A stretch of DNA of 18,102 bases. Origin: Candidatus Krumholzibacteriota bacterium. GTDB taxonomy: Bacteria > Krumholzibacteriota > Krumholzibacteriia > LZORAL124-64-63. Below the pieces are notes generated by a model. The model was not told the origin of the DNA. It worked only from the letters and a program-made list of their open reading frames with translations, and made no database searches. Shown here in pieces: positions 1,645 through 16,655 of this stretch. The stretch covers positions 1 through 18,102 of the forward strand of contig JBDLKA010000076.1 in the NCBI GenBank assembly GCA_039714075.1. Direction: 5' to 3'. A program made the translations under genes and the position numbers. Each line of letters begins with the position of its first letter. Position 1 is the first letter of the stretch.

Positions 1645-4227
1645 TCACTCCACCCGAGTCTTGAAACTCACGCTGAAGCCGGGATGGTTCACCCCGTCCG
1701 AGGCGGCAAACGCACCTTTGGGCACCACGCGCATGTGCGTCACCACGGGGTCGAAACCCAGGACGTCGGGCACTGGCACGTAGTTCCAGGTGGCGCCGCC
1801 GTCGCTGGAAAACTCCAGGTCGTCGGCCGGATCCGCCAATCCGCCGTAGGTGTAGCTCATCCCCCCGGGCGTCACACCGTCCGCGAAAGCTACCGGTCCG
1901 GATCCCGCACCCGCGAAATCACCCACGAAAACCGCCGTGTTCGCCGGGATGGGATCGGTCATGGCCAGGGCGTCGGCGTCGGCCGGACCCGGGCCCGTAT
2001 TGACCGCCGTGATGACGTTCAGAACCACCGCCCCGGGGATGGCCTTGGGATTGGCCAGCAGGTTCACGGGATCCGATTCGGTCACCGTGGTCTTGCTGAC
2101 CAGGATGTTGGGGACCAGCGCGGTCACCGCGGTTACACCGCCGAACTCCGAAGTGGATCCACCCATCGTGGCGGTCATGGTCAGCAGGTCGCCCGTGACC
2201 ACGCCGGCCGGCAGCGGGATCACGAACTGGAAACGGTTGGTGTTGTCCTGGCCGACCGGAACTCCGTTCACCGGCAGGGGACCGTACAGGCTGGTCGTCC
2301 CGTCCAGGTCCAGCGCCGAACCCTCGGTCAGGGTCGTGACGTAGGTTTCCCCTTCCCCCAGGCCCGACGGGTCGGCGGCCGCGATGAACATTTCGATCAT
2401 CGAGCCCGGCCGCGCCCAGCCGCTCAGGGTAAGTTCGCCGCCGACGTTGAGCGCCGATTCCAGCACCGGGAAATTCAAAAGGTCATTGCCGCCCGCATCA
2501 CCGTCGCCGTTGTCGTTCAGGGTATAATAGGGAGCCACGCCGCTACGATCGTTTTCGCCGCCGGCCAGCAGATCGATCCCCACCTGGCCCGTGGGCGCCC
2601 ATCCGCCGGTATTGGTGATGGTGCCGTTCCCGTAAATTGAATTCCGGGTAATGGTCACCGCGTTCGCCGCCGGAACGACCATCACGCCCGCACCGTAATT
2701 CTCGGCCAGGACGTTGCCCTGAACCAGGAGGCCGCCGCTGACAACCCGCACGCCCGGGGTTTCCGTGCCGCCGATCGCGGCCATACCGTTGCGGCGGATC
2801 GTATTATCAAGCAGGGTGATTGCCGCCGAACCGGCCTCCACATCCACCCCCGCGCCACCGTTTTCGTGGATCAGGTTTCCGGTCACCGTGACATTCGAAC
2901 ACCCGTCCAGGCTGAGGCCGTTCTGCGCCCCGTCGGACTGGGCGTTGGCGAAGATCTCGTTGCCTTCGATCAGCCATCCGTCGGTACCCGCCCGCGCCTC
3001 GACGCCGTGCCGGTCGCTGAAGGCGATCAGGTTTCCGTGGAGCGTCCCGCCGGTCGCCCCCGCCAGGGTGATCACCGGCACCGACCGCCAGGCGCCGGGA
3101 TCGGTGAATCCCCCGGGACCCGTGCCCAGGACATTTTGTTCGATGATCGTGCCGGCGCAAGTCTCGACCAGAATGTTCCCCATGGCCGCACTCCAACCGA
3201 AACTCGAAAAGCTGTGGACCGAAAGGTTGCGCACGGTCGTCAGGTCGGCCTGGATGCGCAGTCCGAACAACGTCCCGTTGGAACCGGCAATCTCGAGTTC
3301 GGGCCGGGCGACCGTCGCCACGGCCGCGCCGCTCGTTCCTACCCCTCCTCCGGTTCCCAAAACACCTGGATTCGCATCGAGGATCGCGACTCCGTTCGCC
3401 GCGTCGAAGGCCACGCCGTCCACTGTCGTTCCCGGGTCCGTCAGGGCCGGCAGATTGGCAGTCAGCGACAAACGCCACCACTGTCCTCCACCGCCCGAGG
3501 CATTGGGCGCCACCGCCGGGACGAAGCGCATCACGTTGTCACCCACCATGGCGTTGGCGTTGACCAGGAACTGCCGCAGGCTGCCCTGCACCGCGGTGCT
3601 GCCTCCGCCCAGCGGATTGGTCACCACGGTGAAGCTGAAGCCGAAATCGATATTGTCGGCGTGGGGACCGCTGACGTCCGCCCGGCCCACATGCTGGTAA
3701 ATATTATCCGCCGGATTGGTGCTGCCCGTGTTGAAGCCGTCCGAAACCCCGGGGGTCGCCCCACCGAAGCGCGGCCCCACATCCAGGGCGATGGTGGTGG
3801 GATCATCTCCCACCGTCTGCTGGGCCCAGACGTTCGCCGGGCCGAATCCGCCGTTGAAACCCGCCGAAGGGCTCATGCCCCGGGAATTCACCGCCACCAG
3901 GTAATAATCCCCCGTGGCATTGGTCTCGACCTTGAAATTGAAGGCCCCCGAGGCGTTGGTGGTATGTTCCTCCAGGAAGGTGTCGCCCGCGTCGACCAGG
4001 CCATTGTTGTTGCCGTCCCTGTACAGGCGCACACCCAGCCCGCTGGTTTTAAAGTCGCCCACGAGGGAACCGTCGCCCAGAATGTCCTCGTAGACCGTGC
4101 CGCGCACGGTGCGGCGCCGGGCCTCAGCCGTATCCGCCCAAAGAACCGACCCCGCGACCACCAACAACAACATCATTGCCCGCAGTGCTTTTCCTTTATC
4201 CATGGTCATGCCCATTATCCTATTCAT
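1645..4227 (-). CDS. Exported multidomain surface protein/adhesin: SdrD-B-like N-terminal domain, right-handed parallel beta-helix, Ig-like domain, C-terminal truncated DUF11; putative tip subunit
   Basis: Signal peptide ...LLVVAGSVLWADTAEA. 'VRGTVYED..GDG...V.LYRD.NNNG..D.GD......TNASGAFNF' (SdrD-B/CnaB-like). Repeated 'I.GN.I..N...G' beta-helix turns. 'IDL....TLNDNGDGD.GGN.LLNFPVL'. C-terminal 'ILVSKT...AIPGA....I...NTG......TDPIP'. ATG 4227 overlaps the upstream stop; downstream ATGs (4215, 4209, 4203) are alternative starts. Confidence 0.85.
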   Translation of the reverse strand: MNRIMGMTMDKGKALRAMMLLLVVAGSVLWADTAEARRRTVRGTVYEDILGDGSLVGDFKTSGLGVRLYRDGNNNGLVDAGDTFLEEHTTNASGAFNFKVETNATGDYYLVAVNSRGMSPSAGFNGGFGPANVWAQQTVGDDPTTIALDVGPRFGGATPGVSDGFNTGSTNPADNIYQHVGRADVSGPHADNIDFGFSFTVVTNPLGGGSTAVQGSLRQFLVNANAMVGDNVMRFVPAVAPNASGGGGQWWRLSLTANLPALTDPGTTVDGVAFDAANGVAILDANPGVLGTGGGVGTSGAAVATVARPELEIAGSNGTLFGLRIQADLTTVRNLSVHSFSSFGWSAAMGNILVETCAGTIIEQNVLGTGPGGFTDPGAWRSVPVITLAGATGGTLHGNLIAFSDRHGVEARAGTDGWLIEGNEIFANAQSDGAQNGLSLDGCSNVTVTGNLIHENGGAGVDVEAGSAAITLLDNTIRRNGMAAIGGTETPGVRVVSGGLLVQGNVLAENYGAGVMVVPAANAVTITRNSIYGNGTITNTGGWAPTGQVGIDLLAGGENDRSGVAPYYTLNDNGDGDAGGNDLLNFPVLESALNVGGELTLSGWARPGSMIEMFIAAADPSGLGEGETYVTTLTEGSALDLDGTTSLYGPLPVNGVPVGQDNTNRFQFVIPLPAGVVTGDLLTMTATMGGSTSEFGGVTAVTALVPNILVSKTTVTESDPVNLLANPKAIPGAVVLNVITAVNTGPGPADADALAMTDPIPANTAVFVGDFAGAGSGPVAFADGVTPGGMSYTYGGLADPADDLEFSSDGGATWNYVPVPDVLGFDPVVTHMRVVPKGAFAASDGVNHPGFSVSFKTRVE

Positions 4228-7200
4228 GCGGACCACCCATGAAGGCCTTGAGGATGGTGCCCGCGGTTTCCTGGTCGAATTTCAACCGGAAGCGCAGGAA
4301 CGGTCCCTGGGCCGTGAAATCGGCGGCCGAGAAGTCTGCGTCGTAGAAGCCGATGAAGTTGTAGCCCAGGCTCATCCAGACATTGTTCATCACGTTGAAT
4401 CCGAAAGAACCCCCGGCGCTGTAGTCGATCTGCTTCGCGTACCACGAGTGCAGGCCGCTCAGCCTGAAGCCCAGATCCATCCGCGGGCTCAGGTTCTGCC
4501 GTACTTCGCCGCCGAGCAGATCGGTCAAACCCTTGTAGCGACGGCCGGCGATGTCGTCCTGGTTGTACTTGATCCCGTGCTGCAACGCGATCTGGGTGTT
4601 GCGGCCCGAGTAGTAGGTCAGATTCAGATGATTGACGATGCGCCAACCCGACAGATCGGTCGTCAGCGAGTAGCGTTCCTCGGTTACCCAATCCAGCCGG
4701 TCCAGGATGACCCAACCCTCGCGGTCCGGCCGCAGGGCCAATCCCAGGCGGATGTCGTATTTCCTGCGCCGGGATCCGGCCTCCCCTTCGGTGCCCGCGA
4801 TCCGGGCCTTGCCCGCCACACCCAGGCCCGAGCGGGGTTCCACCAGCACGCTGGGCACCACGGCCCATTTGTCGTCCAGGGCCGAGTTGCGGATCTCGAA
4901 GCGACTGTTCCATTGCCAGCGCTCGGCGTTGTAGCCCACGGCCGTCGAAATTGCCGTGAAACCGGCCAACGCCCCCGAAGCGGGCGGGACGTTTTCGTTG
5001 ACCCGCGGTGTGTCGAAACCCTCGGTCGCTTCGCTGTGATCCAGGCCGAAGTCCATGTTCCAGTGATCGCTGACCTTCCACAACTGGCGCAGACCCAGAT
5101 TGGCGAAGGCCCGCGACCCGTTTTCGGTGAAGCGCCGTTCCCAGCTGCTGGTAACACGTCCGCCGGTCCACGGTTTGGTCTCGAAACCGAACCGGGCGCC
5201 GCGCGTGTCCCCCGCCGCTCCGTTGGTGATTTCATAACGGGACAGCAGGTTCAGGTTGCGGACGATTTCAAAATCGGCGCCCAGCGTGGTCCGCGTGGGG
5301 TAGTCCACGTTGCGGTTCTCTCCATCCAGCGACTGCTCGTGGTCCGCCGAGAATTTCAACCGCCGGTTCCGCGTGCTGATTTCCCCGCCGCCGGTGATCT
5401 GGGTCGAACCGTGGTCGTTCAGGACCGTGAACCTGTCCTCTACCCACCGCCCGCCTGCGTGGATACTGAAGATCGAATCACGCCACTGCAGCTTGCCCTC
5501 GATGTTGTCCCGCCGCGAACCGTTGGCCAGGTTGTCCTGCCGCCAGGTCTGGCTCTTGAAGGTCAGACGGGAATTCATTTTCCAGTCCAGGTCCACCCCG
5601 AGCTTGCGCGTGCCCGCTTCACTCCGGTTCTGCTGGCCCAGCCCGAAGCCGACCTCGTTCTGCCTGACGTAGGCCCGGGCGCCAAACCGTCCCGCGGTGT
5701 TCTTGATTTCCGCCAGGTAGGCGTCGTGCCGTCCGGTCATATCCGTGTCGGTAACGACATACTCGCCTTTCAACTCGGTCTGCGGCCCGAACCGGTAACG
5801 GCCGTCCCAACCGATCAGTTCACCCTTGCCGGCGTTTTCCTCCTGGTGAATGAAGGTCGTGCCCAGCTCCAGCTTGCCGCCGGCCGTGGTGACCGCCCCG
5901 CGACCGCCATAATTGTTGTAATCCCCGTCCCTGCTGCGGGTTTCGTAGTTCACCACGATGAAGATCGGGTTCAGGTTCTCGTCCCTGCTCCAGATGGGCT
6001 CCTTGAAGTAGAGCGAGCCGTCCTCATGATCGATGCTGTAGTCCAGATGGCGGGTCAGCTTCCGCGAACCCAGGATGACCTCGCTGCGGAACCGGTCCCG
6101 CACCTCGATCGTGATCTCCTCCGAGTTGATCACCAGGTCACGGCGCGTCAGGTAATACATGCCGCTGGTACCGTCGCCGCGGATCTCATCACGCATATAA
6201 CCGTGGCCGGTCTGGTTGGCGAACAGGTTCAGACCCACGTGTTCGGACTTCAACTCGGACTTGATGCCGTTGAAGTTTCGCGTGTAGCCCGCCAGCTCAT
6301 TGATGGACAGGCCCGTATTGTAGTCACCGAACAGGGCATAGAACTGGCGGCGTTCGATCTTGACGTAGAGCTTGCGCGAACTGGACGCATCGTAGTCCTG
6401 CCGCGAACCGTCGCCGTACAGCGTGAAGTACTGGTCCGGGTCGATCTCCTGGTACAGGGCGCCGGTGTCCCCGTCCCAGTCCTTGCCGGTGTCGAAGGCC
6501 AGGGTCGCCAGCCACTCGCCCCTGATGCTGCCCTTGGCGTAGAAAGCCACCCGGCCGTCGCTGTACCACCTGTCGTCCGGCGCGTTGCCCTGCAGGGGTT
6601 CCATGTTTCCGTTCAAGGTGTTGTAGCCCACGGTTCCCTCGGCCAGGCCCACCAGGATCCAGTCACGGGCGCCGGGTTCCAGCCAGGTTCGCATTTCCTG
6701 CTGATGGCCCTGGAAATGGAAGTGCAGGACGGTTTCGCCCGTCTTGGTCGTGGGCTGCAGCCTGACATGCGCAACCCCGTCCGCTCCCACCACATAGCTG
6801 GGTCTCTGGCGTCGCATTCCGACCAACGGATCCTTCTGGAAATCCTCGAATTCCTGTTGGGACATGTGGGGTGCGTCCACCGTGAATTCCCCGATGATTC
6901 CTTCACGCGCGGGCTGCCCGTCGCGGTCGGTCAGACGCACGGCGATCACGGGCAGGGTCTTTCCGTCCGCCGTCAGGGTCGACTGTTCGGGCAGCATGGT
7001 CGCCAGGACCGGCGGGCTGGCGTAGTGGACATAGCGCGCCTTGCGCCACAGTTCCTTGCCCTTTTCATCGCGCCCGACGGCCACGAACAGGTTCTCCCCT
7101 TCCTTGAGATCGATCCCCGTCCAGATACTGACCGCCACCATGCCGTCATTACTCGCTTTGACGCCGTCGAAATTCACCGCCTCGACCGGCCGGCCGTCCT

Positions 7201-10153
7201 TGATCAGATCGACATGCTTGGCCTCGCTGTGCTGAACGGCGATATCCAGGCTCGGTATCGACGGCCGGTGGTCCACCGGCGGCCACACCCAACCGTCCAC
7301 CGGATCCGCCGCATCCAGCCAGGCCTTGTCGATGTCCGGCATCACCGGAGGCGCCTGGGGTTTGGGCTTGGCTTCCTCCGCACGCAGCCGTGCTTCGCTG
7401 GCGGTGATGCCCACCGTCGGCGTGGTCGTGTGTTCGACCCGGGACACGGTGTCGGTGCTGGCCTGGTTGAACTTTTCGGCCGTGACCACTCGCAGTTCCA
7501 CCCGCCGGTTGAGTTGCCGGCCCTCGCGGGTGTTGTTCGGCGCCACCGGGTTGTCGGGACCCTGGCCAACCAGGGTTATCTGTTTCGCTTCCAGGTCCAG
7601 CGCCGCGCCCAGATACTCCCCGATAGACCGCGCCCGCGCCATCGACAGGACGTAGTTGTCCGCCCAGGTCTTCTGCCCCCGCGGGGTGATGGGCACGTTG
7701 TCCGAATGGCCGGTCACGTGCATGTGCAGCACCTGTCGCGACTTAAGCAGGTCGGCCAGCTGGTTCAGTTCCTGGTAATAGTCCTCGTGAACCGTGGCGC
7801 TGAACGTCTTGAAGCGCGGACGCAATACCACATCCGGCTTCAGGGTCAGCATCTCGTCCAGTTGTAGGCCGACGATCGTGGTGATCGGATCGGTGCGCCG
7901 GATTTCACCGTTGGGCATGGTGAAGGTCAGCTGCGCACCCACCGGCAGGTCACGGCTTTCACTCAGATTGGTCAGATCGGACTCGAACCGCAGCACCAGG
8001 TTCGAATCGGCGTCCGCGCCATCCAGGCCAAAGGTCAGAAAATTGTCCTGGATGTCGGGATCCCCGCAGACTTCGCCGTCCAACCTGGCGCTGCCCGTGC
8101 GGTAGGCCACCCCATCGGGCAGGATCACGGTCAGGACAAGTTTTTCGAGATCGATGGAACCCTCGTTGATGTTCATGCGGCAACTCAGGGTCGTCCCTGT
8201 CCGGGAGGTCGCCAGTTCCAGTCCGACCTCCCCTTCGGGGATGGGTTCGGGGATGAAGTGCAGGTTGAAGTCCGCCCGCCACAGGGTTCCACCCTGGATA
8301 TCGACGAAGCGCGAATAGGGCCGGCCCGCGGAACGTGTGTCGTCCACGCAGGCCAGGGGTTCATGGCGGTCGGGCAAAGTGGCCACGTCGATCTGGACTA
8401 CGTGCGCTCCCGCAGGTACGCCCTCGAAGTGGTAACGCCCGCCGTCGTCGGTGACGCTGAAGGATCCATCCTCCAGGAAAACCCGCACGCCGGGCACGCC
8501 CACCCTTTCCTCGTCGCGAGACAGTTCGCATTCACCCACCACCACGCGCCCGGTGATGAAGCCGGTGTCGCGGAAGTAGGCGTCACGGACCTGGGTGTAC
8601 ACCACGGCTTCGCCGGAGGAAACCCCCTCCTCCGCCTTTGCCCGCGCGGTGCTGACCACCTCGCCGGGGCGGGACCCTGCGGCAACCTCTATCACGTACT
8701 GGATCTGGATGACTCCGAAGATGGGAATGTCACCCAGGTCGAAGTACAGGGTCCGGCCGTCCGCGGACATCCGCGGGATGATGGTCCCACCGCCTTCGGT
8801 GGTCGCGGAACCGTCCTGGAAAGCGAAGCCCGGCGGCAAATTGTCCGTGATGACAGTCTGCAGCGCCGTGCCGACGCCCCGGTTCTGCAGGCGTATGGTG
8901 TATTGCAGGAAATCACCCTGGCTCACCAGATCGCGGTCGGCGGTTTTGGTCAAGGCCAGCTGGTCCGAGGTCGGTATCGGGTCCATCGGCACGTCAAGAT
9001 TGAGCGCGGGACCGGGATTGACGGAGAACGGTTCGCCCCGCGAACCCGGTTCGGCGATGGCGAACGGCGCGCCGGGCAATAGCTGGAGATTGGCGGTCGG
9101 AACGTTTGACGGAGCCGTGTAGGCCAGCGGACTTTCTATCTCCAGGCGATAGTCTCCGACCACCACGAACGGGAACCGGAATCCACCCGGCGGGAAATCG
9201 TACTGGTGTCCCCCGGTGTCCACCACGGTGCCGCCCGAAGTGATGGTCGCGGGGAAGATGCTGGCCCCGTCGTCACCGAACACCACCGCGGGAAGTCCCG
9301 TGGCGGTATTGATCATGGTGATCACGGCCCCGTCGACCGGCAGGCCGGTGACGCTGTCGAACACATGGCCGGTGGGGTCGATCAGGGCGGTCACCGAAAC
9401 GTTGTCGGTGGGGTCGAGGACATCCACGTAGGACGCCTCGGCGGTCTGGTCGGGTTCCACGGTGAGCATCGGATCCAGGGCCCGCGGCGCAATGCCGCCT
9501 TCGGTCTGGACATAACCGACGAATTCACCGGTGTCGGGACCGGTTTCCGTCACCTGAAGCAGGATGTCGTCCCCATCCGCCAGGACTTCCACCCTGATGA
9601 TGACCGTTTCACGCACGGCCGGATCCAGGTTCTGGTCCAAATCTCCCACCCGAATGAAAACGGGTTCACCCTGATGGATCAGGGTCCGCGCCGTCAGCGG
9701 CAGCGGTTGGCTCAGGTCGAGCGGCTGGACCCTGCCCGGCGGCACCGGCGGCGGCAGCGCCATGAACACCCCGGTGGGCGTCCCGTCGGTGCTGTATGAC
9801 GTTTGCGCCACGTTGACCATTTCGGCGTCGGTGCGATTCGGCGCGTACTGGAGAAGTTCAATGGCGGCCGGAGTCCGCAAATCGACCGTGACGATGGTCA
9901 CCAGATTGGACTCGGCGAAAAGGTTGTCGGTGCCGTCCACGGAATAGTTCGCGGTGGCGATGTTGTCGATGATCGTCCCGGGCGGGCTCTGGGCGAACCC
10001 CCGGGTCGGCGCGGCCAACATCCCCACTGTGAGAACGAAAAGCCAAAGGGCGAATGCCGTGGTCCTGAACAGACGGACGCCCGGACATGTCTGAATGACA
10101 CTTCCGGGACGCCCGAACCTGTTCATGTTGCTAAACCGTTTTGCCACTGGCAA
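4220..10153 (-). CDS. Very large outer-membrane protein: N-terminal Ig/CarboxypepD-like and DUF11 domains, central OmpA-like peptidoglycan-binding domain, Ig domains, C-terminal large beta-barrel
   Basis: 1977-aa ORF with signal peptide ending RGFA. 'GHVFDSVTGLPVDGAVITM'. DUF11 'LALTKTADRDLVSQGDFLQYTIRLQN...ITDNLPPGF'. OmpA-C motif 'VTGHSDN...DNYVLSMARA...GPDNPVAPNNTREGRQLNRRVE' (~7480-7830). About 800 aa of amphipathic beta-strands ending 'GPFLRFRLKFDQ'. Start uncertain (TTG 10153 or ATG 10126). Confidence 0.88.
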   Translation of the reverse strand: MPVAKRFSNMNRFGRPGSVIQTCPGVRLFRTTAFALWLFVLTVGMLAAPTRGFAQSPPGTIIDNIATANYSVDGTDNLFAESNLVTIVTVDLRTPAAIELLQYAPNRTDAEMVNVAQTSYSTDGTPTGVFMALPPPVPPGRVQPLDLSQPLPLTARTLIHQGEPVFIRVGDLDQNLDPAVRETVIIRVEVLADGDDILLQVTETGPDTGEFVGYVQTEGGIAPRALDPMLTVEPDQTAEASYVDVLDPTDNVSVTALIDPTGHVFDSVTGLPVDGAVITMINTATGLPAVVFGDDGASIFPATITSGGTVVDTGGHQYDFPPGGFRFPFVVVGDYRLEIESPLAYTAPSNVPTANLQLLPGAPFAIAEPGSRGEPFSVNPGPALNLDVPMDPIPTSDQLALTKTADRDLVSQGDFLQYTIRLQNRGVGTALQTVITDNLPPGFAFQDGSATTEGGGTIIPRMSADGRTLYFDLGDIPIFGVIQIQYVIEVAAGSRPGEVVSTARAKAEEGVSSGEAVVYTQVRDAYFRDTGFITGRVVVGECELSRDEERVGVPGVRVFLEDGSFSVTDDGGRYHFEGVPAGAHVVQIDVATLPDRHEPLACVDDTRSAGRPYSRFVDIQGGTLWRADFNLHFIPEPIPEGEVGLELATSRTGTTLSCRMNINEGSIDLEKLVLTVILPDGVAYRTGSARLDGEVCGDPDIQDNFLTFGLDGADADSNLVLRFESDLTNLSESRDLPVGAQLTFTMPNGEIRRTDPITTIVGLQLDEMLTLKPDVVLRPRFKTFSATVHEDYYQELNQLADLLKSRQVLHMHVTGHSDNVPITPRGQKTWADNYVLSMARARSIGEYLGAALDLEAKQITLVGQGPDNPVAPNNTREGRQLNRRVELRVVTAEKFNQASTDTVSRVEHTTTPTVGITASEARLRAEEAKPKPQAPPVMPDIDKAWLDAADPVDGWVWPPVDHRPSIPSLDIAVQHSEAKHVDLIKDGRPVEAVNFDGVKASNDGMVAVSIWTGIDLKEGENLFVAVGRDEKGKELWRKARYVHYASPPVLATMLPEQSTLTADGKTLPVIAVRLTDRDGQPAREGIIGEFTVDAPHMSQQEFEDFQKDPLVGMRRQRPSYVVGADGVAHVRLQPTTKTGETVLHFHFQGHQQEMRTWLEPGARDWILVGLAEGTVGYNTLNGNMEPLQGNAPDDRWYSDGRVAFYAKGSIRGEWLATLAFDTGKDWDGDTGALYQEIDPDQYFTLYGDGSRQDYDASSSRKLYVKIERRQFYALFGDYNTGLSINELAGYTRNFNGIKSELKSEHVGLNLFANQTGHGYMRDEIRGDGTSGMYYLTRRDLVINSEEITIEVRDRFRSEVILGSRKLTRHLDYSIDHEDGSLYFKEPIWSRDENLNPIFIVVNYETRSRDGDYNNYGGRGAVTTAGGKLELGTTFIHQEENAGKGELIGWDGRYRFGPQTELKGEYVVTDTDMTGRHDAYLAEIKNTAGRFGARAYVRQNEVGFGLGQQNRSEAGTRKLGVDLDWKMNSRLTFKSQTWRQDNLANGSRRDNIEGKLQWRDSIFSIHAGGRWVEDRFTVLNDHGSTQITGGGEISTRNRRLKFSADHEQSLDGENRNVDYPTRTTLGADFEIVRNLNLLSRYEITNGAAGDTRGARFGFETKPWTGGRVTSSWERRFTENGSRAFANLGLRQLWKVSDHWNMDFGLDHSEATEGFDTPRVNENVPPASGALAGFTAISTAVGYNAERWQWNSRFEIRNSALDDKWAVVPSVLVEPRSGLGVAGKARIAGTEGEAGSRRRKYDIRLGLALRPDREGWVILDRLDWVTEERYSLTTDLSGWRIVNHLNLTYYSGRNTQIALQHGIKYNQDDIAGRRYKGLTDLLGGEVRQNLSPRMDLGFRLSGLHSWYAKQIDYSAGGSFGFNVMNNVWMSLGYNFIGFYDADFSAADFTAQGPFLRFRLKFDQETAGTILKAFMGGPHE

Positions 10154-10186
10154 CCCGCCCGGATGACTCCCGGGACAGGAATCCTT

Positions 10187-11275
10187 CTAGTCGATAATGA
10201 CCGAGAAGGTTTCCGTCGCTGCCGATGCGGCGGCCACGGTGAGGTAGACCACCCGGACATCGGTCACGGCGGGGTCGGTTCCGTTGGCGCCGGGCACCGG
10301 ACCATAGGCCCAGGTCGCACCGCCGTCGTTGGAGTAGGAAACCACCGCGGCCGGAACCGTGGCGACCGATCCCACCAGGAACGCGCTGTTGGCCGGGACC
10401 GAATCGATGACCTCGACGTTGTCCGCGGCCAGGGTACCGGAGTTGGTCACCAGGATCGTATAACCGACCGTTGCGCCCGGAATCGCCTTCGGGTTCACGG
10501 CCAGGTTGAAGGGATCGCTGATCACGCTGGTCGTCTTCATGGCGGTCAAGGTGGTGGTGATGACCTTGTATCCGTCCTTGCTCGAGAACCGGCCGTCGGT
10601 AGCTCCGTCGGCCGTACCGGCGCCGTCGCCGAACACGATCTGGATCAGGGCCGGGTCGTCGGCCGCGGCCGCGTCATCGGCGAGGATGTCCGCGCCCTGG
10701 GCGCCACCGGTGCCGCCGGCGGCGGTCTGTGCGATCAGGTCGTAGGAAGCGACATCGTTGTTGACCTGGACCAGCGGGATATCGGACAACACGAACACCG
10801 TGATGGAGGCCCCGGAAGCCAGTTCGTCGATATAGGTGTCGGTGTCGGCGGCGGTGTAGGTGTTGTCGGCGTCGGTATCGACGTAGACGTTCACGTTGAC
10901 CGCGTTGAAGGTCTCGACCTCACCGAAGGCACCGGTGGGCGAATTCAAGGCCGACAGGGAGTAATCCTGCACCGTGTTACCGTTATTGGTCACGGCATAG
11001 GTCAGGACCTGGGCTAAGCCACCGGGAATCACGGCAACGATGGCAGCATCGACCGTGGTCACGGTCAGGTCGACCTTGTTGTCCACCAGGAAACTGGCGA
11101 TGTTGCTGACCACCTGCGTCTGCGGCGTACCGCTGACGGAGAAGTCGAGGGTCGCCGTGTTGTTGATCGGCGTGCCCGAAGGGGTGTTCTGTGCCAGAGC
11201 GATCGAGGACAGACCGAACACCAGGGCGCCGGCCAGCAGGATCACGAACAGGTTCTTTTTGCTACGGATCGTCAT
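10187..11275 (-). CDS. Exported DUF11-family protein, 362 aa; candidate major fibre subunit
   Basis: ATG 11275 with AAGGAGG RBS. Signal peptide ending SIALA. N-terminal 'TPSGTPINNTATLDF'. Middle Ig domain 'IPGG...LTYAVTNNGN'. C-terminal DUF11 'LTAMKTT...AIPGATVGYTILVTNSG...VIDSVP...TFSVIID'. Confidence 0.88.
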   Translation of the reverse strand: MTIRSKKNLFVILLAGALVFGLSSIALAQNTPSGTPINNTATLDFSVSGTPQTQVVSNIASFLVDNKVDLTVTTVDAAIVAVIPGGLAQVLTYAVTNNGNTVQDYSLSALNSPTGAFGEVETFNAVNVNVYVDTDADNTYTAADTDTYIDELASGASITVFVLSDIPLVQVNNDVASYDLIAQTAAGGTGGAQGADILADDAAAADDPALIQIVFGDGAGTADGATDGRFSSKDGYKVITTTLTAMKTTSVISDPFNLAVNPKAIPGATVGYTILVTNSGTLAADNVEVIDSVPANSAFLVGSVATVPAAVVSYSNDGGATWAYGPVPGANGTDPAVTDVRVVYLTVAAASAATETFSVIID

Positions 11276-11305
11276 TTCAAGCCTCCTTGCCAAAATGGCT
11301 TAGGT

Positions 11306-11779
11306 TTACTGCAACTGTGCCCGGAAGGACACGCTTCCCTCGGCGCCCGGCTCCAGAGGATTCTGGAAGGTCCAGCGCACGTGGGTGAAATCGGACTCCT
11401 TGGCAGGGCGCGGTTGGCCCTTGGCGTCCGTGACGGTCAGGTTCCGAGGCGCGTCGTAGCGTGACCCGCCGTCAGCCGACATGCTGACGGTGGCCTGGTA
11501 CGGGCTGTCCTCCACCTGGGTGAAGACCATGTGGTCGGGGATGGGATTGGTGATCACGACGTCCGCCGCGGGTTCCGTCCCGTGGTTGGCGAAAGTGATC
11601 GTGTAGATGACCTCGTCGCCGGGAACGACCTTGCCGGCCTCCACGCGCGTGGTCACTTCCTGCCCCTCTTCATCGGTCGTGGTGATTTCCGTAAGGGCCA
11701 CGGTGTTCAACTCGACGGCCGCATTCGCGACGCCGGCCGACAACAGGACCAGAACGGTGATGGTTAGCACTCTTTTCAT
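11306..11779 (-). CDS. Small exported single-DUF11 protein, 157 aa
   Basis: ATG 11779 with GGAGGAG RBS. Signal peptide ending VANA. 'VVPGDEVIYTITFANHGTEPAADVVITNPIP...VRWTF..LEPGAEGSVSFRAQLQ'. Confidence 0.9.
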   Translation of the reverse strand: MKRVLTITVLVLLSAGVANAAVELNTVALTEITTTDEEGQEVTTRVEAGKVVPGDEVIYTITFANHGTEPAADVVITNPIPDHMVFTQVEDSPYQATVSMSADGGSRYDAPRNLTVTDAKGQPRPAKESDFTHVRWTFQNPLEPGAEGSVSFRAQLQ

Positions 11780-11808
11780 GACTTTCTCCTCCTTCTTTGG
11801 TTCAACGT

Positions 11809-12798
11809 TCAATCAATCGTGACAGTGAATGTGATCGTCTGTCCGGGACCGCCGACGGCCACGTCACCGATTGCCACGGTGATCGTGCCCGATGTTGTGC
11901 CGCCCACATCACCGTTGTCGCCGTCGAGGGCGTCGGTGACGGAGGCTCCGTTCAGCATCAGGGTGCCCGGGTTGTAGGTTGTGTTCAGGGGAATGTCGTC
12001 GCTGATCACGACGTTACTGGTTGTGCCCGTTCCGGTTGCGGTCACGGACAGCTCATAGGTGATGGTGGCTCCGGTTACCGGCCGCGATCCCCCGAAGGGG
12101 TCGACCACCACGGCGGATTTGAGAATGGCCAGCTGCGCGGACAGGGGCACGATGCGGTAGGTTCCCCGATCGTCCGCCAGGCCTCCACCGGCGCCCACCA
12201 CCGCATCCACGCCCATCTCTCCCGCCCCGACGATGACCTCCCCGGGGTTTCCGCTTCCCGTATTGGAGACGACGTCCAGACGGCTGTCCCCCAGCTGGTC
12301 CACGAGGGCGCCGGACGGGATGTCGTTCAGCAGGAACAGCATGGTGAAGGCGTCCGCGGCCAGGACCGGGTCATTGCCGCCGGGGATGTAGAGTTCGTCG
12401 CTGCCCGGGTCGAAGCTGCCGTTCCCGTTGGTGTCCAGGTGGATGTTCGTCAGGTTGGGGTCGAAGTCGTCGCCCGTCAGCGTGCTGAGGCCCGTCAGCG
12501 CGTAGGAGTCGCTGCCGTTGCCGATGTTGGTCAGCCGGAAGGTCAAGGCCTGGCCACCGGCGCCGGGCTGGACCGCAACCGGCGCGGCGTCCTGCCACAC
12601 CAGGCTGAGATCAAGCACCTCGGCCACCGACGTGGTCACGGTGTTGCTGACACCGGAGTAACCAGTACCGGTGATGGTGTAGTTGATGATCGCCTGGCTG
12701 GTGATGTCGGTACCCGCGGGCGTGCCGCCGGCAAAGGCGCAAGCGGCCCCAGCCAGGCAGAAAACCGTTACCGGAATCAGGCGAGAAATAAGCCTCAC
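11809..12798 (-). CDS. Exported DUF11-family protein, 329 aa; candidate minor/adaptor subunit
   Basis: GTG 12798 with GAGGGAAGGA upstream. Signal peptide ending ACAFA. N-terminal 'GTPAGTDITSQAIINY'. 'VQPG....LTFRLTNIGNGSDSY'. C-terminal DUF11 'LAILKSA...TGATITYELSV...VVISDDIP...ITFTVTID'. Confidence 0.87.
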   Translation of the reverse strand: MRLISRLIPVTVFCLAGAACAFAGGTPAGTDITSQAIINYTITGTGYSGVSNTVTTSVAEVLDLSLVWQDAAPVAVQPGAGGQALTFRLTNIGNGSDSYALTGLSTLTGDDFDPNLTNIHLDTNGNGSFDPGSDELYIPGGNDPVLAADAFTMLFLLNDIPSGALVDQLGDSRLDVVSNTGSGNPGEVIVGAGEMGVDAVVGAGGGLADDRGTYRIVPLSAQLAILKSAVVVDPFGGSRPVTGATITYELSVTATGTGTTSNVVISDDIPLNTTYNPGTLMLNGASVTDALDGDNGDVGGTTSGTITVAIGDVAVGGPGQTITFTVTID

Positions 12799-13182
12799 GA
12801 AATCGGATCCTTCCCTCGGCAAATGACGGCGCCCCGGACGAGGGATGGACCCGTCCCTGGGGCGTTCGGGTCCAGCGCCGATCCTTCGGCGCGTAACCCA
12901 TTACTGGCTCTTGTTTTTTCGGGAATTCAAGGGGACGGCTTTAGGGGGATATTCGCTGGGAGGGCACAAGGAACTATAATAATTGCAGGATTTTATCTTA
13001 TTTCTTGGTTTTTTGCATTTTCATTATCGCCCCAGGCCATTTCGATTCTTTGCGAGTCGGGATTCAGGAGGATTTTTGTCGTGACCGGCTCGATATTCTC
13101 AATTAGGATTCGGTTCAACATCATTGAATGACACATCTCGCTCAGAACATTGGATTCGAAAAAACCCTGGAGGGAGTCACTC
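12799..13182. promoter_or_regulatory. Divergent intergenic control region: AT-rich core plus GC-rich hairpins in the DUF11-operon leader
   Basis: Non-coding gap between divergent starts. AT-rich 12970-13030. Inverted repeats gcgccga/tcggcgc (12875-12892) and cgcccc...ggggcg (12830-12864). Exact promoter boxes not assigned. Confidence 0.55.
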
Positions 13183-13719
13183 ATGTTCAAGAAAATCCTG
13201 TTCCTCACGTTGGTGACCGCGGTCCTGTGCCCCCTGACGGCCATGGGCAGCATCTACTTCGGAGCCGGCATCGGAAACTCATGGCAAAGCGCGACCGTCG
13301 AGGCCGGTGATGTATTCGACGAGGTATCGGAGATCAGCCAAAGTTCAACCGGTTGGAAGATTTTTGCCGGTTTCAAGAGCGAGAGCATTTTCGGCATCGA
13401 GGGCGGTTACCGGGACCTGGGCAAGGTCGAGTCCCCGTTTGCCGGATTGAATTACGGGATCAGCAGCGACGGCTGGGACATCGCCGCCATGGGCCACCTG
13501 GAAATCGCGATCATCGATCTCTTCGCCAAGGCGGGCGCCTTTTTCTGGTCCACCGATTCCAACTTCATCGGTGACGACAGCGGGACCTCCTTCCTGTGGG
13601 GTCTGGGTGCGGGGGTTTCCCTCGGGCCGGTCGGTATCCGGCTCGAATGGGAAAGCATGGAGGTTGGATCGATGGACAATCTCTCGATGTTGAGCCTGGG
13701 GGCAACTTTCGGGTTCTAG
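13183..13719 (+). CDS. Small outer-membrane beta-barrel protein (OmpA transmembrane-like / OMP_b-brl), 178 aa
   Basis: ATG 13183 after GGAGGGAG. Signal peptide. 'IYFGAGIG', 'GWKIFAGF....FGIEGGYRDLG', 'DLFAKAG', 'WGLGAG', 'IRLEWE', C-terminal 'LSLGATFGF' BAM-type terminal Phe. Confidence 0.9.
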   Translation: MFKKILFLTLVTAVLCPLTAMGSIYFGAGIGNSWQSATVEAGDVFDEVSEISQSSTGWKIFAGFKSESIFGIEGGYRDLGKVESPFAGLNYGISSDGWDIAAMGHLEIAIIDLFAKAGAFFWSTDSNFIGDDSGTSFLWGLGAGVSLGPVGIRLEWESMEVGSMDNLSMLSLGATFGF

Positions 13720-13732
13720 GCTTGGCTAGGGT

Positions 13733-13758
13733 GACGGCCGCCTGAAAGGGCGGCCGTC
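13733..13758. terminator. GC-rich hairpin between convergent genes, probable intrinsic terminator
   Basis: gacggccgcc-t-gaaa-g-ggcggccgtc: 10-bp perfect stem plus U-G pair with GAAA tetraloop, 14 nt after the OMP stop. Only a short T run follows. Confidence 0.7.
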
Positions 13759-13802
13759 CATTTACCGAAGGAACTCAGCCCACGAATCCCAGGCAGGTCA
13801 TT

Positions 13803-14615
13803 CTACTGGTCGAAATTTCCTTCAGTGGACTTTTCCCTGGTTCCGAAGGGAAGATGATACCGCAACCCCATGGCAAAACCCCCTTCAAATAGACTTTCCG
13901 TTGAACCAAGGCGTACGCTTAGATCCAGATCAAACCGATTCGAAAGCGGCAGGAACACCTGCTGAACAAAGCCAAGACCATCATAAAAACCGGCCGACAA
14001 TCCGGAAAACAGTCGCGCTTTGGAACCAACGGGATAGCCCATGCCAATTTTGAAATAGCCTCCCCCTGAAGCCAACGGGAGATCCTCGTTCAATGAAGTC
14101 TGGAAATTTGCCTTATGGTAGTTTCCGATACGGAGGTGAGAACTCATGGGAAGGTTGTCTGAAGAATCCCCAAAGGTGAAAGGAATTTCACTGCTCAAAT
14201 ACCCGGCCCCGATTCCGATATACTTGCTTTCCATCGCTGCATATGGGTTGTAGTAGCTGTAGGAAACCGATTGTTCATAACTATCACTTATCTGTGCCCC
14301 ATCAACATAGCTGGACAGGGGCATCCGTGCATTGGAATCCAGATTGCCGCCCCGAACGCCCAGGGCGAAAATGACACCACTTTCAGAACAGTGGCTAACC
14401 TGCACCGACCCGGCCATGTCTACGAATTTGTTTTTTTCCGACGCGATGGGATTGCCGGAGCAATCCCGAATGACCGAGACCACCTGGCCGACACCCCCAT
14501 GGGCACTGACCGTTAATTCATCGGGATGTTCCGGGTCGATCCGTATTCCGATGGGCATGACAATTATGAACAACCACAAGGTCGTCCGACGTAATTTGTA
14601 GGCAAATCCACCCAT
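13803..14615 (-). CDS. Hypothetical protein, 270 aa, possibly an outer-membrane beta-barrel
   Basis: AAGGGGG RBS, N-terminal hydrophobic stretch, Gly/aromatic alternating strands (YIGIGAGY, YFKIGMGY, FDLDLSVRLG, FAMGLRYHLPF). Confidence 0.6.
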   Translation of the reverse strand: MGGFAYKLRRTTLWLFIIVMPIGIRIDPEHPDELTVSAHGGVGQVVSVIRDCSGNPIASEKNKFVDMAGSVQVSHCSESGVIFALGVRGGNLDSNARMPLSSYVDGAQISDSYEQSVSYSYYNPYAAMESKYIGIGAGYLSSEIPFTFGDSSDNLPMSSHLRIGNYHKANFQTSLNEDLPLASGGGYFKIGMGYPVGSKARLFSGLSAGFYDGLGFVQQVFLPLSNRFDLDLSVRLGSTESLFEGGFAMGLRYHLPFGTREKSTEGNFDQ

Positions 14616-14632
14616 TATGGCCCCCTTGTTTT

Positions 14633-15502
14633 CTACTGATCACGACTCCCTTTTTGAACGCGCTTGAAGCTGTTGAATCTTGTCAATAAAGCATCGAACC
14701 CGGCTTTCTCGTGCGTGGAAAGTCCGTTCAGCCGCGAGCGATGGTCCTGCGGCTGAGGCAGGATCCGCCAGTTTTCACCTTCCAATACCAGGAAGGCTTT
14801 TTCCAGTTCATACTTTTCCGGAAAGTCCGGGGACGTCTGCTCGAAAGCACAAAGGGCCAGGCGCCCGTCAGCAATGGTTTCAACCACCCGGTTGATGATC
14901 CGGTGGTCGGCGAAAAACACCACTCCTTCCTCGACAAACCTGCTCACAGCCTTTTTCTGATCGGGGTTATGCATCAGGAACAATTCCGGTGCTTCACCGG
15001 CCTGCCCGTTCTGAAGCAGATCAAACAGATGCTGAAGAACACTATCTGCGGGACACGCGGCCATCGTCGTTGTTTCGGAGGCGGTGGGGGTTTCCTGTTC
15101 GGGGATTCCGGCCCCCTGTGCGCTGTCAACGGAACTGAAAACGGTATAATAGACAAGACCCGCTATCGACCAGAATACGATCCAGCTCAGGTGTTTTCCC
15201 TTTGATGCCGCCAGGGCCATCGCACCACTGAGAAAAAACACGGCACCGACAGTCAACAAAACCACCCGCGCCGGGTCAGCCGTTTCGCGGGAAACGGACC
15301 ACACCAGAAAACCCAGACCCCACCAGGCGACGGTTGTCAGGTGCCAGGCAAACCGAAGGGTTCTTTTGGTGAAGAAGTCACTGCCGAAAAGATGTGGAAT
15401 ACGCGAACTCCGAAACAGGCGTATCAGGATGAAGCGCTCGCCCAGGTACGAGTGGACAACTCCAATGGCGAAGCAGAGTATGGCTGCCGTCAGCAATACC
15501 AT
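14633..15502 (-). CDS. Hypothetical protein, 289 aa: ~122-aa four-TM membrane domain, linker, soluble C-terminal domain; lies directly after an attC site
   Basis: GGAGGGA RBS. 'GVVHSYLGERFILIRLF...FTKRTLRFAWHLTTVAWWG...KHLSWIVF' hydrophobic domain, then PEQETPTASETTT linker and a hydrophilic domain. Confidence 0.75.
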   Translation of the reverse strand: MVLLTAAILCFAIGVVHSYLGERFILIRLFRSSRIPHLFGSDFFTKRTLRFAWHLTTVAWWGLGFLVWSVSRETADPARVVLLTVGAVFFLSGAMALAASKGKHLSWIVFWSIAGLVYYTVFSSVDSAQGAGIPEQETPTASETTTMAACPADSVLQHLFDLLQNGQAGEAPELFLMHNPDQKKAVSRFVEEGVVFFADHRIINRVVETIADGRLALCAFEQTSPDFPEKYELEKAFLVLEGENWRILPQPQDHRSRLNGLSTHEKAGFDALLTRFNSFKRVQKGSRDQ

Positions 15503-15537
15503 TGTAAAACCATCCCTCCGGGATCCATTTCAATTCC

Positions 15538-15635
15538 AACAAACTTTGGGCCCATCCGCGAAATCGATTGGTGGGAAACTGGCGAAAGCCGGATGCGTGA
15601 CAAGCGGCTTTGTCAGGTGCAAGCTCCTGTTAGCC
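15538..15635 (-). mobile_element. Integron attC site (degenerate right half), 98 bp
   Basis: Minus strand: R'' GGCTAAC (contains the upstream gene's TAA), AGGAGC, L'' TTGCACCTGAC, 52 nt, GCGGATGGG, CCCAAA, GTTTGTT. Gap-free colinear with the attC at 16656-16753. Confidence 0.75.
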
Positions 15636-16640
15636 GTTCACAGACACTAACGCCAACTCCAGCTCATGCGCTTCGTCAGGCTGGATGCCCACCGCACGAA
15701 CCCTTCGACATGTCCCATACGGTCCTTGCACATATACCGCCTCTGAGAAAATAATCCAATGCGTAGGCGGGCCAATCAGTTTGAGATTTAGGGATTCCTT
15801 ACCAAATTCTGGTTGCTTGCTGCAAATTTCGGAAATCTCGGACCGCGAAACATCCATAGTATATCGGAGCCCACTGCGGATCAGAACACGCTTTTCGCCA
15901 ACTAGAATCGGGCGAAGCACCGTTGCGCGATAGTCGGCAACCATCCACAGTGCTCCGTATGCGGAGCTAAGAGTGAAGAGCCACGCCGCGGCCGAATTCC
16001 ACATGGAGAGCAACAAATGTACAGCGAACCCCTCAACCGCCAAAAGCACGACAAAGCCTAATACGATTCCTGCCTGACCACTTCGACGGTGGTGGGTGAA
16101 CGCTGCTGTACCTGCAAGATCGTGGGGTACCGACCGCCACGCGCCCAACGCGTAATAGAAGATTCCAATTTCGGAAGCGAATACCCCTGCTGCTCGATTG
16201 TTGCGCAACAACCCAAAGGCCGCGCTCCGGAATTGTTCAAGGGGGTCCAGGGCTACACTGCGTCGTGCTTCACGCAATGCCCTTCCGGCACGCCAAATGA
16301 TCCACCCCAACAAACCTAATTCTGCGGGGACAACAATTGCTTCAAGAAAATGTAGCGTCCGTTGGTGACCGGAAGGAAGCACTATGGAGGCTACCAGCAA
16401 GCTGGCCACTACAACGGGGGCCAACCTGAAAATGGAGTGCCCGGCCCGACGTACCAAAAGAAAGTAAAATGCCAGCGGGACCAGGATAACCATGTCAATT
16501 GTCAGCCCAATGACAACAACACCAGCGCTCTCGATGCTAGACAGCCGACTAACTACGGTCAAAGCAGTTGCATAGACCGCCGTTACGACGCCCAAGAACA
16601 ATAGGAGTGGCATACGTTGATTTGGTATGGCTTGAATCAA
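15630..16640 (-). CDS. Multi-pass membrane protein of unknown function (gene cassette), ~336 aa
   Basis: Several hydrophobic helices. Start placed at TTG 16640 (GGAGAGGG upstream) or ATG 16613, because the ORF-track extension to 16721 runs through an attC. The stop lies inside R'' of the next attC. Confidence 0.8.
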   Translation of the reverse strand: MIQAIPNQRMPLLLFLGVVTAVYATALTVVSRLSSIESAGVVVIGLTIDMVILVPLAFYFLLVRRAGHSIFRLAPVVVASLLVASIVLPSGHQRTLHFLEAIVVPAELGLLGWIIWRAGRALREARRSVALDPLEQFRSAAFGLLRNNRAAGVFASEIGIFYYALGAWRSVPHDLAGTAAFTHHRRSGQAGIVLGFVVLLAVEGFAVHLLLSMWNSAAAWLFTLSSAYGALWMVADYRATVLRPILVGEKRVLIRSGLRYTMDVSRSEISEICSKQPEFGKESLNLKLIGPPTHWIIFSEAVYVQGPYGTCRRVRAVGIQPDEAHELELALVSVNG

Positions 16641-16655
16641 AATTTTTCCCTCTCC

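Follow-up and report, generated by a model that had tools for sequence, protein, structure and literature searches.

Chaperone-usher pili, which are built on strand complementation, carry a two-domain tip adhesin without a donor and a terminator or anchor at the base, and they are assembled at an outer-membrane protein. Work by Xu from 2016 and by Shibata from 2020 reportedly established that the type V pili of Bacteroidota consist of lipoprotein pilins that are primed by proteolysis and joined through C-terminal donor strands; to our knowledge, no covalent link is known in these pili. In the SpyTag/SpyCatcher system, CnaB-type domains from Gram-positive adhesins were cut in the laboratory into a catcher, which holds the Lys and an acidic catalyst, and a tag strand with the partner residue. 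Here we describe a cluster of five closely packed minus-strand open reading frames (ORFs) at positions 1645-12822 of contig JBDLKA010000076.1 (assembly GCA_039714075.1, Candidatus Krumholzibacteriota bacterium), whose products, called p1 to p5, may form a fiber from DUF11 domains that are split between proteins. The whole stretch of DNA analyzed, 18,102 nucleotides, is referred to as the window.

A 2025 survey has renamed DUF11 as CLIPPER and describes it as CnaA-like, with an intramolecular isopeptide bond that forms autocatalytically (PMC12617251). According to the same source, this bond connects the first and the penultimate strands of CnaA-like folds, DUF11 domains have seven to nine strands, and DUF7507 has seven. 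In the crystal structure 9IFR, which derives from a 2129-residue Acinetobacter silvestris adhesin with an OmpA-like anchor, the domain spans residues 708-828 and the triad is Lys715, Asp748, and Asn806 (PMC12617251). The survey covers intramolecular bonds, and its accessible text does not describe a split form.

Two systems combine strand exchange with a covalent link between subunits. In BsaA from Clostridium perfringens, the donor carries N35 and the acceptor carries K74 and E56, and changes of these residues to Ala abolish oligomers (bioRxiv 10.1101/2024.11.04.621531). By analogy, this protein, in which the principle of exchange followed by locking has been tested experimentally, is the closest precedent for the arrangement considered below. 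Sulfolobus threads are likewise joined by donor-strand complementation, together with a proposed isopeptide bond in which Asn57 of subunit n-2 is linked to the amine of the N-terminal residue, Asp24 (PMC9715654).

Four Proteins End within a DUF11 Domain and Three Begin with a Hairpin

An earlier sequence-only reading of the window had noticed that p1, p2, p3, and p5 all stop after the same DUF11 strand, and had proposed that an N-terminal hairpin of p1, p3, or p4 completes the C-terminal DUF11 domain of the next subunit. The four C-terminal strings that it quoted (ITFTVTID, VSFRAQLQ, ETFSVIID, and VSFKTRVE, each followed by a stop codon) are correct, the coordinates of its hairpin peptides match exactly, and the internal DUF11 domain of p4 does run past the cut point (IQYVIEV...VSSGEAVV, p4 residues 484-518). 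This internal copy, located at 8588-8959 (all features of p1 to p5 lie on the minus strand), serves as the uncut reference. Its profile was built from 38 complete internal DUF11 domains of p4 homologues and has 144 columns.

Both profile-profile comparisons and family alignments place a common end of the four proteins after the IQYVIEV strand of the complete domain. In hhalign comparisons with that domain, the C-terminal domain of p1 ends at column 98 of 144 (P = 1.4e-14), p2 at column 97 (4.8e-10), and the C-terminal domain of p3 at column 98 (1.8e-9), and these last columns correspond to the end of the strand. The C-terminal domain of p5 matches the p3 profile from end to end, with both stopping at the last column (P = 8e-36). 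The same end column is shared by 80/80 sequences of the p3 family, 93/95 of p1, 61/61 of p2 (117/117 in a second sample), and 23/23 of p5. What the cut domains lack is a segment of about 32 residues (p4 491-522) that forms two strands in the complete domain. Only the internal copy of p4 is a whole, continuous DUF11 fold. The truncated domains, hereafter called acceptors, occupy 11812-12138 in p1, where the sequence ends after the antepenultimate DUF11 strand, 10190-10552 in p3, and 1648-2109 in p5. The fourth, p2, consists of a single cut DUF11 domain preceded by a signal peptide.

The N-terminal hairpins lie at 12625-12729 in p1, 11084-11191 in p3, and 9884-9991 in p4. A hairpin profile was searched against the ORFs of 77 related loci and of the window, and it matched 83/90 p3-class, 59/66 p1-class, and 35/84 p4-class proteins (many of the p4 ORFs are fragments), as well as 0/76 of the p2 class and 0/32 of the p5 class. 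Nearly all matches start at residues 20-80, directly behind the signal peptide. An independent library gave a hairpin in 90 of 132 p4-family representatives of at least 1450 residues, with several of the misses showing a degenerate copy by eye. The hairpin is followed by a DUF11-like domain in p1 and p3 and by an unrelated domain in p4, which indicates that it is a separate module. Thus, the cut at one strand and the matching N-terminal hairpin could be confirmed, at the level of sequence families, as a property that extends beyond this window.

Several comparisons bear on the identity of the hairpin. Its profile finds a match in an uncut DUF11 domain of one related locus, L035, immediately behind the equivalent strand (GTSPGTPIDNTATVT; independent E value 0.0029). 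Covariation in p3 gives a hairpin register of N38-S61, T40-I59, and S46-P51 (P0001 numbering). A Pfam scan of the isolated hairpin peptides matched 0/3, and a search for fused acceptor-donor junctions in 150 p4 representatives returned just ordinary internal DUF11 domains.

The DUF11 Isopeptide Triad Is Divided between Proteins

The profile of the complete p4-internal domain finds 9IFR with an E value of 3.6e-7. In this alignment, the Lys column falls on chain residue K10, and the Asn of an N-x-A motif falls on N101, which is Lys+91 and agrees with the published triad (PMC12617251). The Asp column falls on the Asp of an LND motif, counted as Lys+34, where the published numbers give 33. Other sequence searches of the PDB were unproductive: phmmer with the p4 DUF11 domain returned only 9flp (E = 0.69), and the profile of whole p3 returned nothing relevant. 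Within the complete domains of p4 homologues, Lys is present in 37/38, Asp in 37/38, and Asn in 34/38, with Ala two residues on in 38/38. The copy in the window itself has K403 and D437, with S501 (8651-8653) at the Asn position.

The same three positions are found in the cut families, distributed over two parts. Acceptor Lys and Asp are conserved in p3 (80/80 for each), p1 (95/95 and 94/95), and p5 (21/23 for each), and p4 has no domain of this type. The hairpin Asn is present in 33/33 p4 sequences (42/42 in a second alignment), 74/80 of p3, and 51/60 of p1; the Ala that completes N-x-A is found in 80/80 p3 sequences. These Lys, Asp, and Asn residues are the most conserved positions of the acceptor and donor parts. 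In the window, the acceptor residues are Lys235 (12118-12120) and Asp275 (11998-12000) of p1, Lys253 (10535-10537) and Asp297 (10403-10405) of p3, and Lys715 (2092-2094) and Asp761 (1954-1956) of p5, and the donor residues are Asn45 (11159-11161) of p3, within N-x-A, and Asn64 (9962-9964) of p4.

Based on these alignments, the Lys/Asp/Asn triad of DUF11 is present but shared out, with Lys and Asp in the acceptor and Asn in the donor. This division between different proteins was absent from the sequence-only reading, and it is the strongest argument that we can offer. It also permits a firmer assignment of the hairpin as the missing penultimate and last strand pair than raw similarity allows. 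The proposal that the hairpin completes the DUF11 domain of the next subunit thereby gains comparative support as far as the nature of the hairpin is concerned.

The exceptions in p5 are informative. Only two p5 proteins lack the Lys, those of loci L003 (16817-18622) and L004 (9857-11680), where Lys is replaced by Ser, and both lack the Asp as well, with Asn in its place. This joint loss shows that the two residues are functionally tied.

The middle domain of p3 (10565-11110) is also DUF11-like (LTYAVTNNGNTVQDY), apparently with final strands of its own, although Pfam misses it. Its Lys position holds Lys in 46/80 and Arg in 31/80 sequences, and its Asp is present in 80/80. Without a conserved Lys, the domain probably forms no isopeptide bond.

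The Protein Set and Its Order Are Conserved across Phyla

A search of contigs from one genome per species located p3 relatives at 199 sites, from which 77 loci were kept; the synteny counts rest on these genome contigs. The closest loci (78-79% identity) are in metagenome-assembled genomes of Candidatus Krumholzibacteriia. The others span many phyla, including Alpha-, Beta-, and Gammaproteobacteria. Carriers include Sphingomonadales (Novosphingobium, Erythrobacter, Qipengyuania, and Porphyrobacter), Asticcacaulis, Eisenbacteria, Nitrospirota, Campylobacterales, Spirochaetales, Burkholderiales, Gallionella, Woeseiaceae, and Steroidobacteraceae, among others.

The order p1-p2-p3-p4 is nearly universal. 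Among 78 sources it occurs alone in 27, with p5 behind in 11, and with p5 in front in 9, and most of the remainder are variants of this order or truncated contigs. The survey of gene order that the sequence-only reading had called for thus shows a pattern of donor-only (p4), donor-and-acceptor (p1 and p3), and acceptor-only (p5) proteins that is conserved across phyla. Proteins of the p5 class have only the C-terminal domain in common, and their heads range from 232 to 1945 residues. In a tree of p1 and p3, a single branch (support 1.0) divides the two families for 140 of 141 sequences, and the two proteins are ancient paralogues. No further conserved neighbor family was found in the 77 loci, the best candidate being a response regulator at mixed positions in 22/77.

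A distant variant of the cluster is carried by an Acinetobacter haemolyticus plasmid (L078; CP085288.1, 187501-208437). It encodes a 2008-residue protein with an N-terminal N-x-A hairpin and a p4-type C-terminal domain, and the OmpA-like domain is encoded by a separate gene for a 360-residue protein. The first gene of this variant is p2-like, the last is p5-like (978 residues), and the small subunit genes are broken into several short ORFs.

p2 Resembles an Acceptor That Has Lost Its Reactive Residues

The p2 family (313 clusters, with very uniform length), which is present throughout these clusters of genes, keeps the common cut but not the reactive residues. Its Lys position holds Ala or Val, and Lys is found in 0/61 sequences and in 0/117 of a second sample. 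The Asp position is occupied by Asn in 53/61 and 108/117, with Asp in only 4/61 and 8/117. The p2 protein of the window has Asn89 (11546-11548) where the catalytic Asp is expected. No hairpin was found in the second sample either (0/117). Because Lys is absent and Asp is mostly replaced by Asn, p2 looks like a catalytically dead acceptor and is not an ordinary acceptor for the fiber tip.

Judged from these replacements, p2 is most likely a reversible, noncovalent binder of the hairpin, acting either as a cap or as a chaperone-like holder. A role as a noncovalent distal cap also fits. We rank the reversible hairpin binder above the distal cap because an irreversible reaction calls for control.

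p4 Combines a Hairpin, a Peptidoglycan-Binding Domain, and a Putative Barrel

The proposed base protein p4 (4220-10153; 1977 residues) was delineated from its ORF and from family scans. It begins with the donor hairpin. Residues 91-760 then make up about five beta-sandwich domains, after which come an OmpA-like domain, a linker of low complexity, a pair of immunoglobulin (Ig)-like domains, and an end region of about 830 residues. The OmpA-like peptidoglycan-binding domain (PF00691) lies at 7505-7813 (residues 781-883) and is matched with an E value of 5e-13 and 49.7 bits against a cut-off of 27.2. The Ig-like pair resembles the Ig domains found at the C-terminus of GH2 enzymes (E = 3e-4).

The C-terminal region (4223-6706, residues ~1150-1977) is predicted to be a large outer-membrane beta-barrel. 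Its last ~830 residues hold many amphipathic beta segments and end in FLRFRLKF plus a short tail. Apart from the Ig-like pair, comparisons of the last ~1080 residues of p4 with Pfam, NCBIfam, and PDB sequences gave no match; even at E<=5 the putative barrel part matches neither a Pfam-A nor an NCBIfam model, and outside the Ig-like part the profile finds no PDB sequence. The region belongs to a large family, with 3355 clusters (50% identity) at E<=1e-3 and 1358 at E<=1e-30, located almost always at the C-terminus of proteins of 1000-3000 residues. Indirect signs of a barrel also come from its relatives, which give subthreshold Pfam matches to the DUF2490, BBP2, and Opacity barrel families, and from its neighbors in the ESM Atlas, which include an "outer membrane protein" cluster with DUF2490 in 14% of members. 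Distant plasmid-borne relatives are annotated as TonB-dependent receptor, outer membrane protein transport protein, or OmpA family protein. This C-terminal domain merits its own family model whether or not the fiber hypothesis is correct.

One of these relatives is a 1118-residue protein on a Devosia neptuniae plasmid (L079; NZ_CP104964.1) that is annotated as a TonB-dependent receptor. It shares 25.7% identity over 72% of the query, falls below all Pfam cut-offs with weak barrel-family matches only, and adjoins a very large SdrD B-like protein.

A Proposed Model for Covalent Fiber Assembly and Its Alternatives

We propose that the hairpin of one protein would insert into the cut domain of the next by donor-strand complementation, and that the completed fold would then form a Lys-Asn isopeptide bond autocatalytically, locking the subunits covalently. 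Assembly would proceed tip first, with the polarity of chaperone-usher pili. The acceptor-only p5, with its variable head, would form the tip and receive the hairpin of an adaptor or shaft subunit, maybe p1. The body would be made of p3, with each new p3 hairpin entering the free acceptor at the base, and p1 would serve as a second shaft or adaptor subunit. Growth would stop when the p4 hairpin is inserted, which would tie the fiber to an outer-membrane protein whose OmpA-like domain would bind peptidoglycan and whose large C-terminal putative barrel may double as an export pore. Formation of the irreversible bond could drive assembly in place of chaperone-held high-energy subunits. One possibility is that subunits travel in a self-complemented state and swap partners at the assembly site.

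On balance, we consider this complete model, in which a naturally split DUF11/CLIPPER domain pairs between chains to yield a covalently linked polymer, to be the best explanation, and we hold it with moderate confidence. It retains from the sequence-only reading the split domain, the pattern of donors and acceptors, the lack of chaperone, usher, and sortase, and the polarity with p4 at the base, p1 and p3 in the shaft, and p5 at the tip. It departs from that reading in that p2 is no ordinary acceptor and in that the divided triad makes a covalent link probable in addition to strand complementation. We advance more tentatively a bolder version, in which double-membraned bacteria of many phyla make a covalent pilus with neither sortase nor chaperone. 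In such a pilus, a CnaA-type domain would have evolved into a catcher (Lys and Asp) and a tag hairpin (Asn), the bond would drive assembly in a periplasm free of adenosine triphosphate (ATP), p4 would be usher, terminator, and anchor in one, and p2 would be a dead catcher that acts as an inverse chaperone, keeping hold of donor hairpins until a reactive acceptor takes them over.

Several observations argue for pairing between proteins. The p4 protein keeps the Asn hairpin, no truncated acceptor domain is detected in it, and its internal DUF11 domain is complete. Conversely, p5 carries Lys and Asp but is free of the hairpin. Among p1 and p3 proteins without an Asn of their own, 13/15 keep their own Lys and Asp, as expected if these residues react with the Asn of another protein. 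In L003 and L004, the p1 hairpin (genes at 8386-9381 and 1394-2389) lacks Asn, having Ser and Cys, respectively, and Asn is kept in the p3 and p4 hairpins of these same loci in which p5 has lost Lys and Asp. The coincidence of p1 Asn loss with p5 Lys/Asp loss (2/7 versus 0/11 loci; Fisher p ~0.14, with the two loci related to each other) is a hint, not significant, that p1 is the partner of p5. For contact of hairpin and acceptor as such, within or between chains, mean-field coupling analysis of 189 p3-family sequences (effective number 136) shows that, within the top 200 couplings, the segment most often coupled to the hairpin is p3 235-254, the Lys-bearing first strand of the acceptor domain; it has 6-7 pairs, where 14-residue windows average 1.07 (hypergeometric p = 0.005).

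Other results weigh against the proposed model, and some of them favor a different arrangement in which p1 and p3 represent circular permutations of DUF11 around an inserted middle domain, and each is stapled intramolecularly by its own hairpin, which folds back. Pairing between chains would then be limited to the p4 hairpin, which would tie one p5 (or p2) to the outer-membrane anchor, and the product would be a covalently anchored adhesin rather than a polymer. The AlphaFold2 monomer model of p3 (predicted local distance difference test [pLDDT] 92.9, predicted template modeling score [pTM] 0.73) has the hairpin at pLDDT 94-95, which suggests that it is docked inside the chain, possibly on the protein's own C-terminal domain. 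A Foldseek search of this model against the PDB gave generic tandem Ig matches only (template modeling score [TM] <0.33), with SafDAA-dsc at rank 35 (TM 0.28). Self-completion is plausible for p1 and p3, since CnaA and CnaB folds tolerate domain insertions (PMC12617251). The couplings are compatible alike with contacts inside one chain and contacts between chains. Moreover, the 14 matches to a minimal hairpin-plus-acceptor pilin are all fragments on contigs shorter than 6 kb, and the geometry of none bars folding back. However, the retention of Lys and Asp in Asn-less p1 and p3 speaks against purely intramolecular stapling, and with two acceptor-only families (p2 and p5) facing one donor-only family (p4), acceptors would be left unpaired. 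The ancient paralogues p1 and p3 are both always retained in the operon, and their break point and hairpin motif are identical to those of proteins that are obliged to pair between chains. We judge such self-stapled subunits unlikely, although they are the most probable of the alternatives. It would be more improbable that pairing is by noncovalent strand complementation only, as in the sequence-only reading, with the three conserved residues serving structural roles. The Asn is absent from p1 in 9/60 and from p3 in 6/80 sequences, and the p1 hairpin of the window itself has Ser42 (12697-12699) at this position, as does the p1 hairpin of a close relative (L002). Strand exchange alone can hold subunits together, given that BsaA N35A oligomers are stable in sodium dodecyl sulfate until heated (bioRxiv 10.1101/2024.11.04.621531). 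Nevertheless, these three positions are the ones that align with the triad solved in 9IFR, no other donor or acceptor residues are as well conserved, and Lys and Asp have been lost together not only in p5 of L003 and L004 but also throughout the p2 family.

Least probable of all, in our estimation, is that there is no complementation and that the C-terminal domains are compact, self-sufficient seven-strand DUF11 folds, with each hairpin belonging to the domain that follows it and the five products acting as separate envelope proteins. Seven-strand DUF11 and DUF7507 forms have been described (PMC12617251), and p2 on its own has a fairly confident ESM Atlas model (pTM 0.77, pLDDT 0.83), so this truncated domain may be stable by itself. 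The strongest hairpin coupling, S33-T101 (rank 1), connects the hairpin base to the middle domain of p3, and the top 200 couplings include 13 from the hairpin to the middle domain and 8 from the hairpin to the C-terminal domain. A point against the proposed model in general is the weak raw similarity between the hairpin and the final strands of p4's internal DUF11 domain (hhalign P = 0.027 over 10 columns), with Asn aligned on Asn. Against an independence of the parts, the domains that follow the hairpin are unrelated between p4 and p1/p3, the Asn of N-x-A never varies in p4 and no Lys/Asp partner domain of the truncated type is present there, p5 retains the reactive Lys and Asp without an Asn-bearing strand, and the cut column is identical in four families. 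A further difficulty for the fiber model concerns its base. The outer-membrane barrel, likely formed by the C-terminal ~800-830 residues of p4, is itself a fold prediction, and the OmpA-like domain sits between the N-terminal rod and this barrel, which leaves the route of the rod to the surface unexplained. With the OmpA-like domain on peptidoglycan, the rod would have to exit through the barrel or meet the fiber at its periplasmic mouth.

Gene Layout and Neighboring Genes

The p1 ORF (11809-12822) encodes 329 residues from a GTG codon at 12798 (11809-12798) and has the plan of a signal peptide, donor hairpin, DUF11-like middle domain, and cut acceptor domain. The p2 ORF (11306-11812) encodes 157 residues from an ATG codon (11306-11779), and the p3 ORF (10187-11293) encodes 362 residues from an ATG codon at 11275 (10187-11275) on the same plan as p1. 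The p5 gene (1645-4236; 863 residues) encodes a variable head with an SdrD_B-like start and a right-handed beta-helix at 2773-3180 (Pfam Beta_helix, residues 353-488, E = 3e-17), which precede the acceptor domain. All five proteins start with what looks by eye like a type I signal peptide, and all are predicted to be Sec-exported.

TIGR01451 scores exceed the 24-bit cut-off for p1 (36.5; E = 3.5e-9), p2 (41.8), p3 (33.5), and p4 (54.3). The Pfam DUF11 model (PF01345) recognizes p2 (E = 8.8e-8), p3, and the internal domain of p4 (1.2e-9) above its cut-off, with p1 below it (14.9 versus 24.6). The C-terminal domain of p5 misses the Pfam model, matching the DUF11 model with an E value of only 0.031.

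The twelve flanking ORFs of the window encode a histidine phosphatase, a DUF302 protein, a small OmpA-type barrel, ParDE, Fic/DOC, and others without assignment. The small barrel gene (13150-13719, plus strand) is divergent from the operon start and encodes a 189-residue OmpA_membrane/OMP_b-brl protein of the small eight-strand type (Pfam 1.7e-13, with a weak AcfA-family match); it is not a conserved neighbor in other loci. Upstream of the operon, a ParE/ParD toxin-antitoxin pair and a Fic/DOC protein are encoded at 16785-17352 and 17573-17971 (both minus strand), and the interval 13803-16721 (minus strand) holds ORFs of 270, 289, and 363 residues with no Pfam or NCBIfam family. The G+C content is 0.62-0.66 in the operon (1645-12900) versus 0.51-0.55 upstream (13000-18102), a difference that could reflect the Gly/Ala/Thr/Val-rich proteins or a separate origin of the cluster. 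An Rfam search and a scan for promoters and terminators gave nothing.

As the sequence-only reading had stated, no PapC/PapD-like or sortase gene is present: chaperone, usher, and sortase families are absent from Pfam/NCBIfam scans of the five proteins and twelve flanking ORFs, and from the conserved neighbors of the 77 loci.

Implications and Comparison with Known Systems

If the model is correct, the cluster would represent a further, widespread route of fiber assembly in Gram-negative-type bacteria and the first case of a CnaA-type isopeptide domain that has been split in nature. Such a route would account for the building of stable fibers outside the inner membrane with no need for ATP, a chaperone, or a sortase, and it would give a function to many proteins annotated as "DUF11 domain-containing" or "OmpA family." It could also provide natural, mutually distinct catcher/tag pairs for protein ligation, with donors from p1, p3, and p4, acceptors from p1, p3, and p5, and p2 as a nonreactive binder. 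The cultured genera that carry the cluster (Novosphingobium, Erythrobacter, Qipengyuania, Porphyrobacter, and Asticcacaulis) make the hypothesis directly testable. In the main texts of the openly readable papers searched, we found no description of a DUF11 fiber whose domain pieces reside on different proteins.

The likeness to BsaA is close in logic. Each has an N-terminal donor segment with an Asn and an acceptor with a Lys and an acidic catalyst, and in each case strand exchange is followed by an autocatalytic, sortase-free isopeptide bond between chains, which is inferred for the cluster described here. The components are unrelated, however. BsaA has a TasA-like fold, an N-E-K triad with Glu, a single-strand donor, a single-membraned host, and a SipW signal peptidase, in contrast to the N-D-K triad and CnaA-like fold of the present proteins. 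As far as it has been described, the BsaA operon lacks an outer-membrane component, has neither a tip nor an anchor as separate proteins, and contains no paralogue of the dead-acceptor kind (bioRxiv 10.1101/2024.11.04.621531). Pfam/NCBIfam scans of the window revealed no TasA/camelysin-type family and no SipW.

The single-chain DUF11/CLIPPER adhesins share with the cluster the domain family, the triad positions, the role as a stalk, and an OmpA-like anchor in a Gram-negative host. In those adhesins, the domain is whole and the bond is formed within the chain (PMC12617251), whereas here the chain breaks off ahead of the penultimate strand and different proteins carry the pieces. Sulfolobus threads differ more widely, since they are archaeal, have another fold, and, in the accessible text, involve neither a Lys/Asp triad nor an outer membrane (PMC9715654).

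With chaperone-usher pili, the cluster has in common the logic of complementation and the polarity. It differs in having a hairpin of two strands as donor, in its predicted covalent lock, and in uniting base, peptidoglycan anchor, and putative pore in one polypeptide. Compared with fimbrial pilins, the acceptors lack two strands rather than one, and no Fimbrial family match was found. Type V pili resemble the cluster in exchanging strands without a classical chaperone-usher pair and in having anchor subunits at the outer membrane; the differences are that no FimA/Mfa family match exists here, that the donor is N-terminal, and that the signal peptides are of type I by eye. There is likewise no sortase in the window of the kind on which sortase-dependent pili rely, and the four acceptor-bearing proteins, having no LPXTG-type sorting signal, end directly behind a beta strand.

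Relative to SpyTag/SpyCatcher, the cluster would be a natural split, of a CnaA-type rather than a CnaB-type domain, that is used for assembly. Thus, the kind of mechanism, donor-strand exchange followed by a lock, is already known, and it is the protein families described here that have not been linked to it before.

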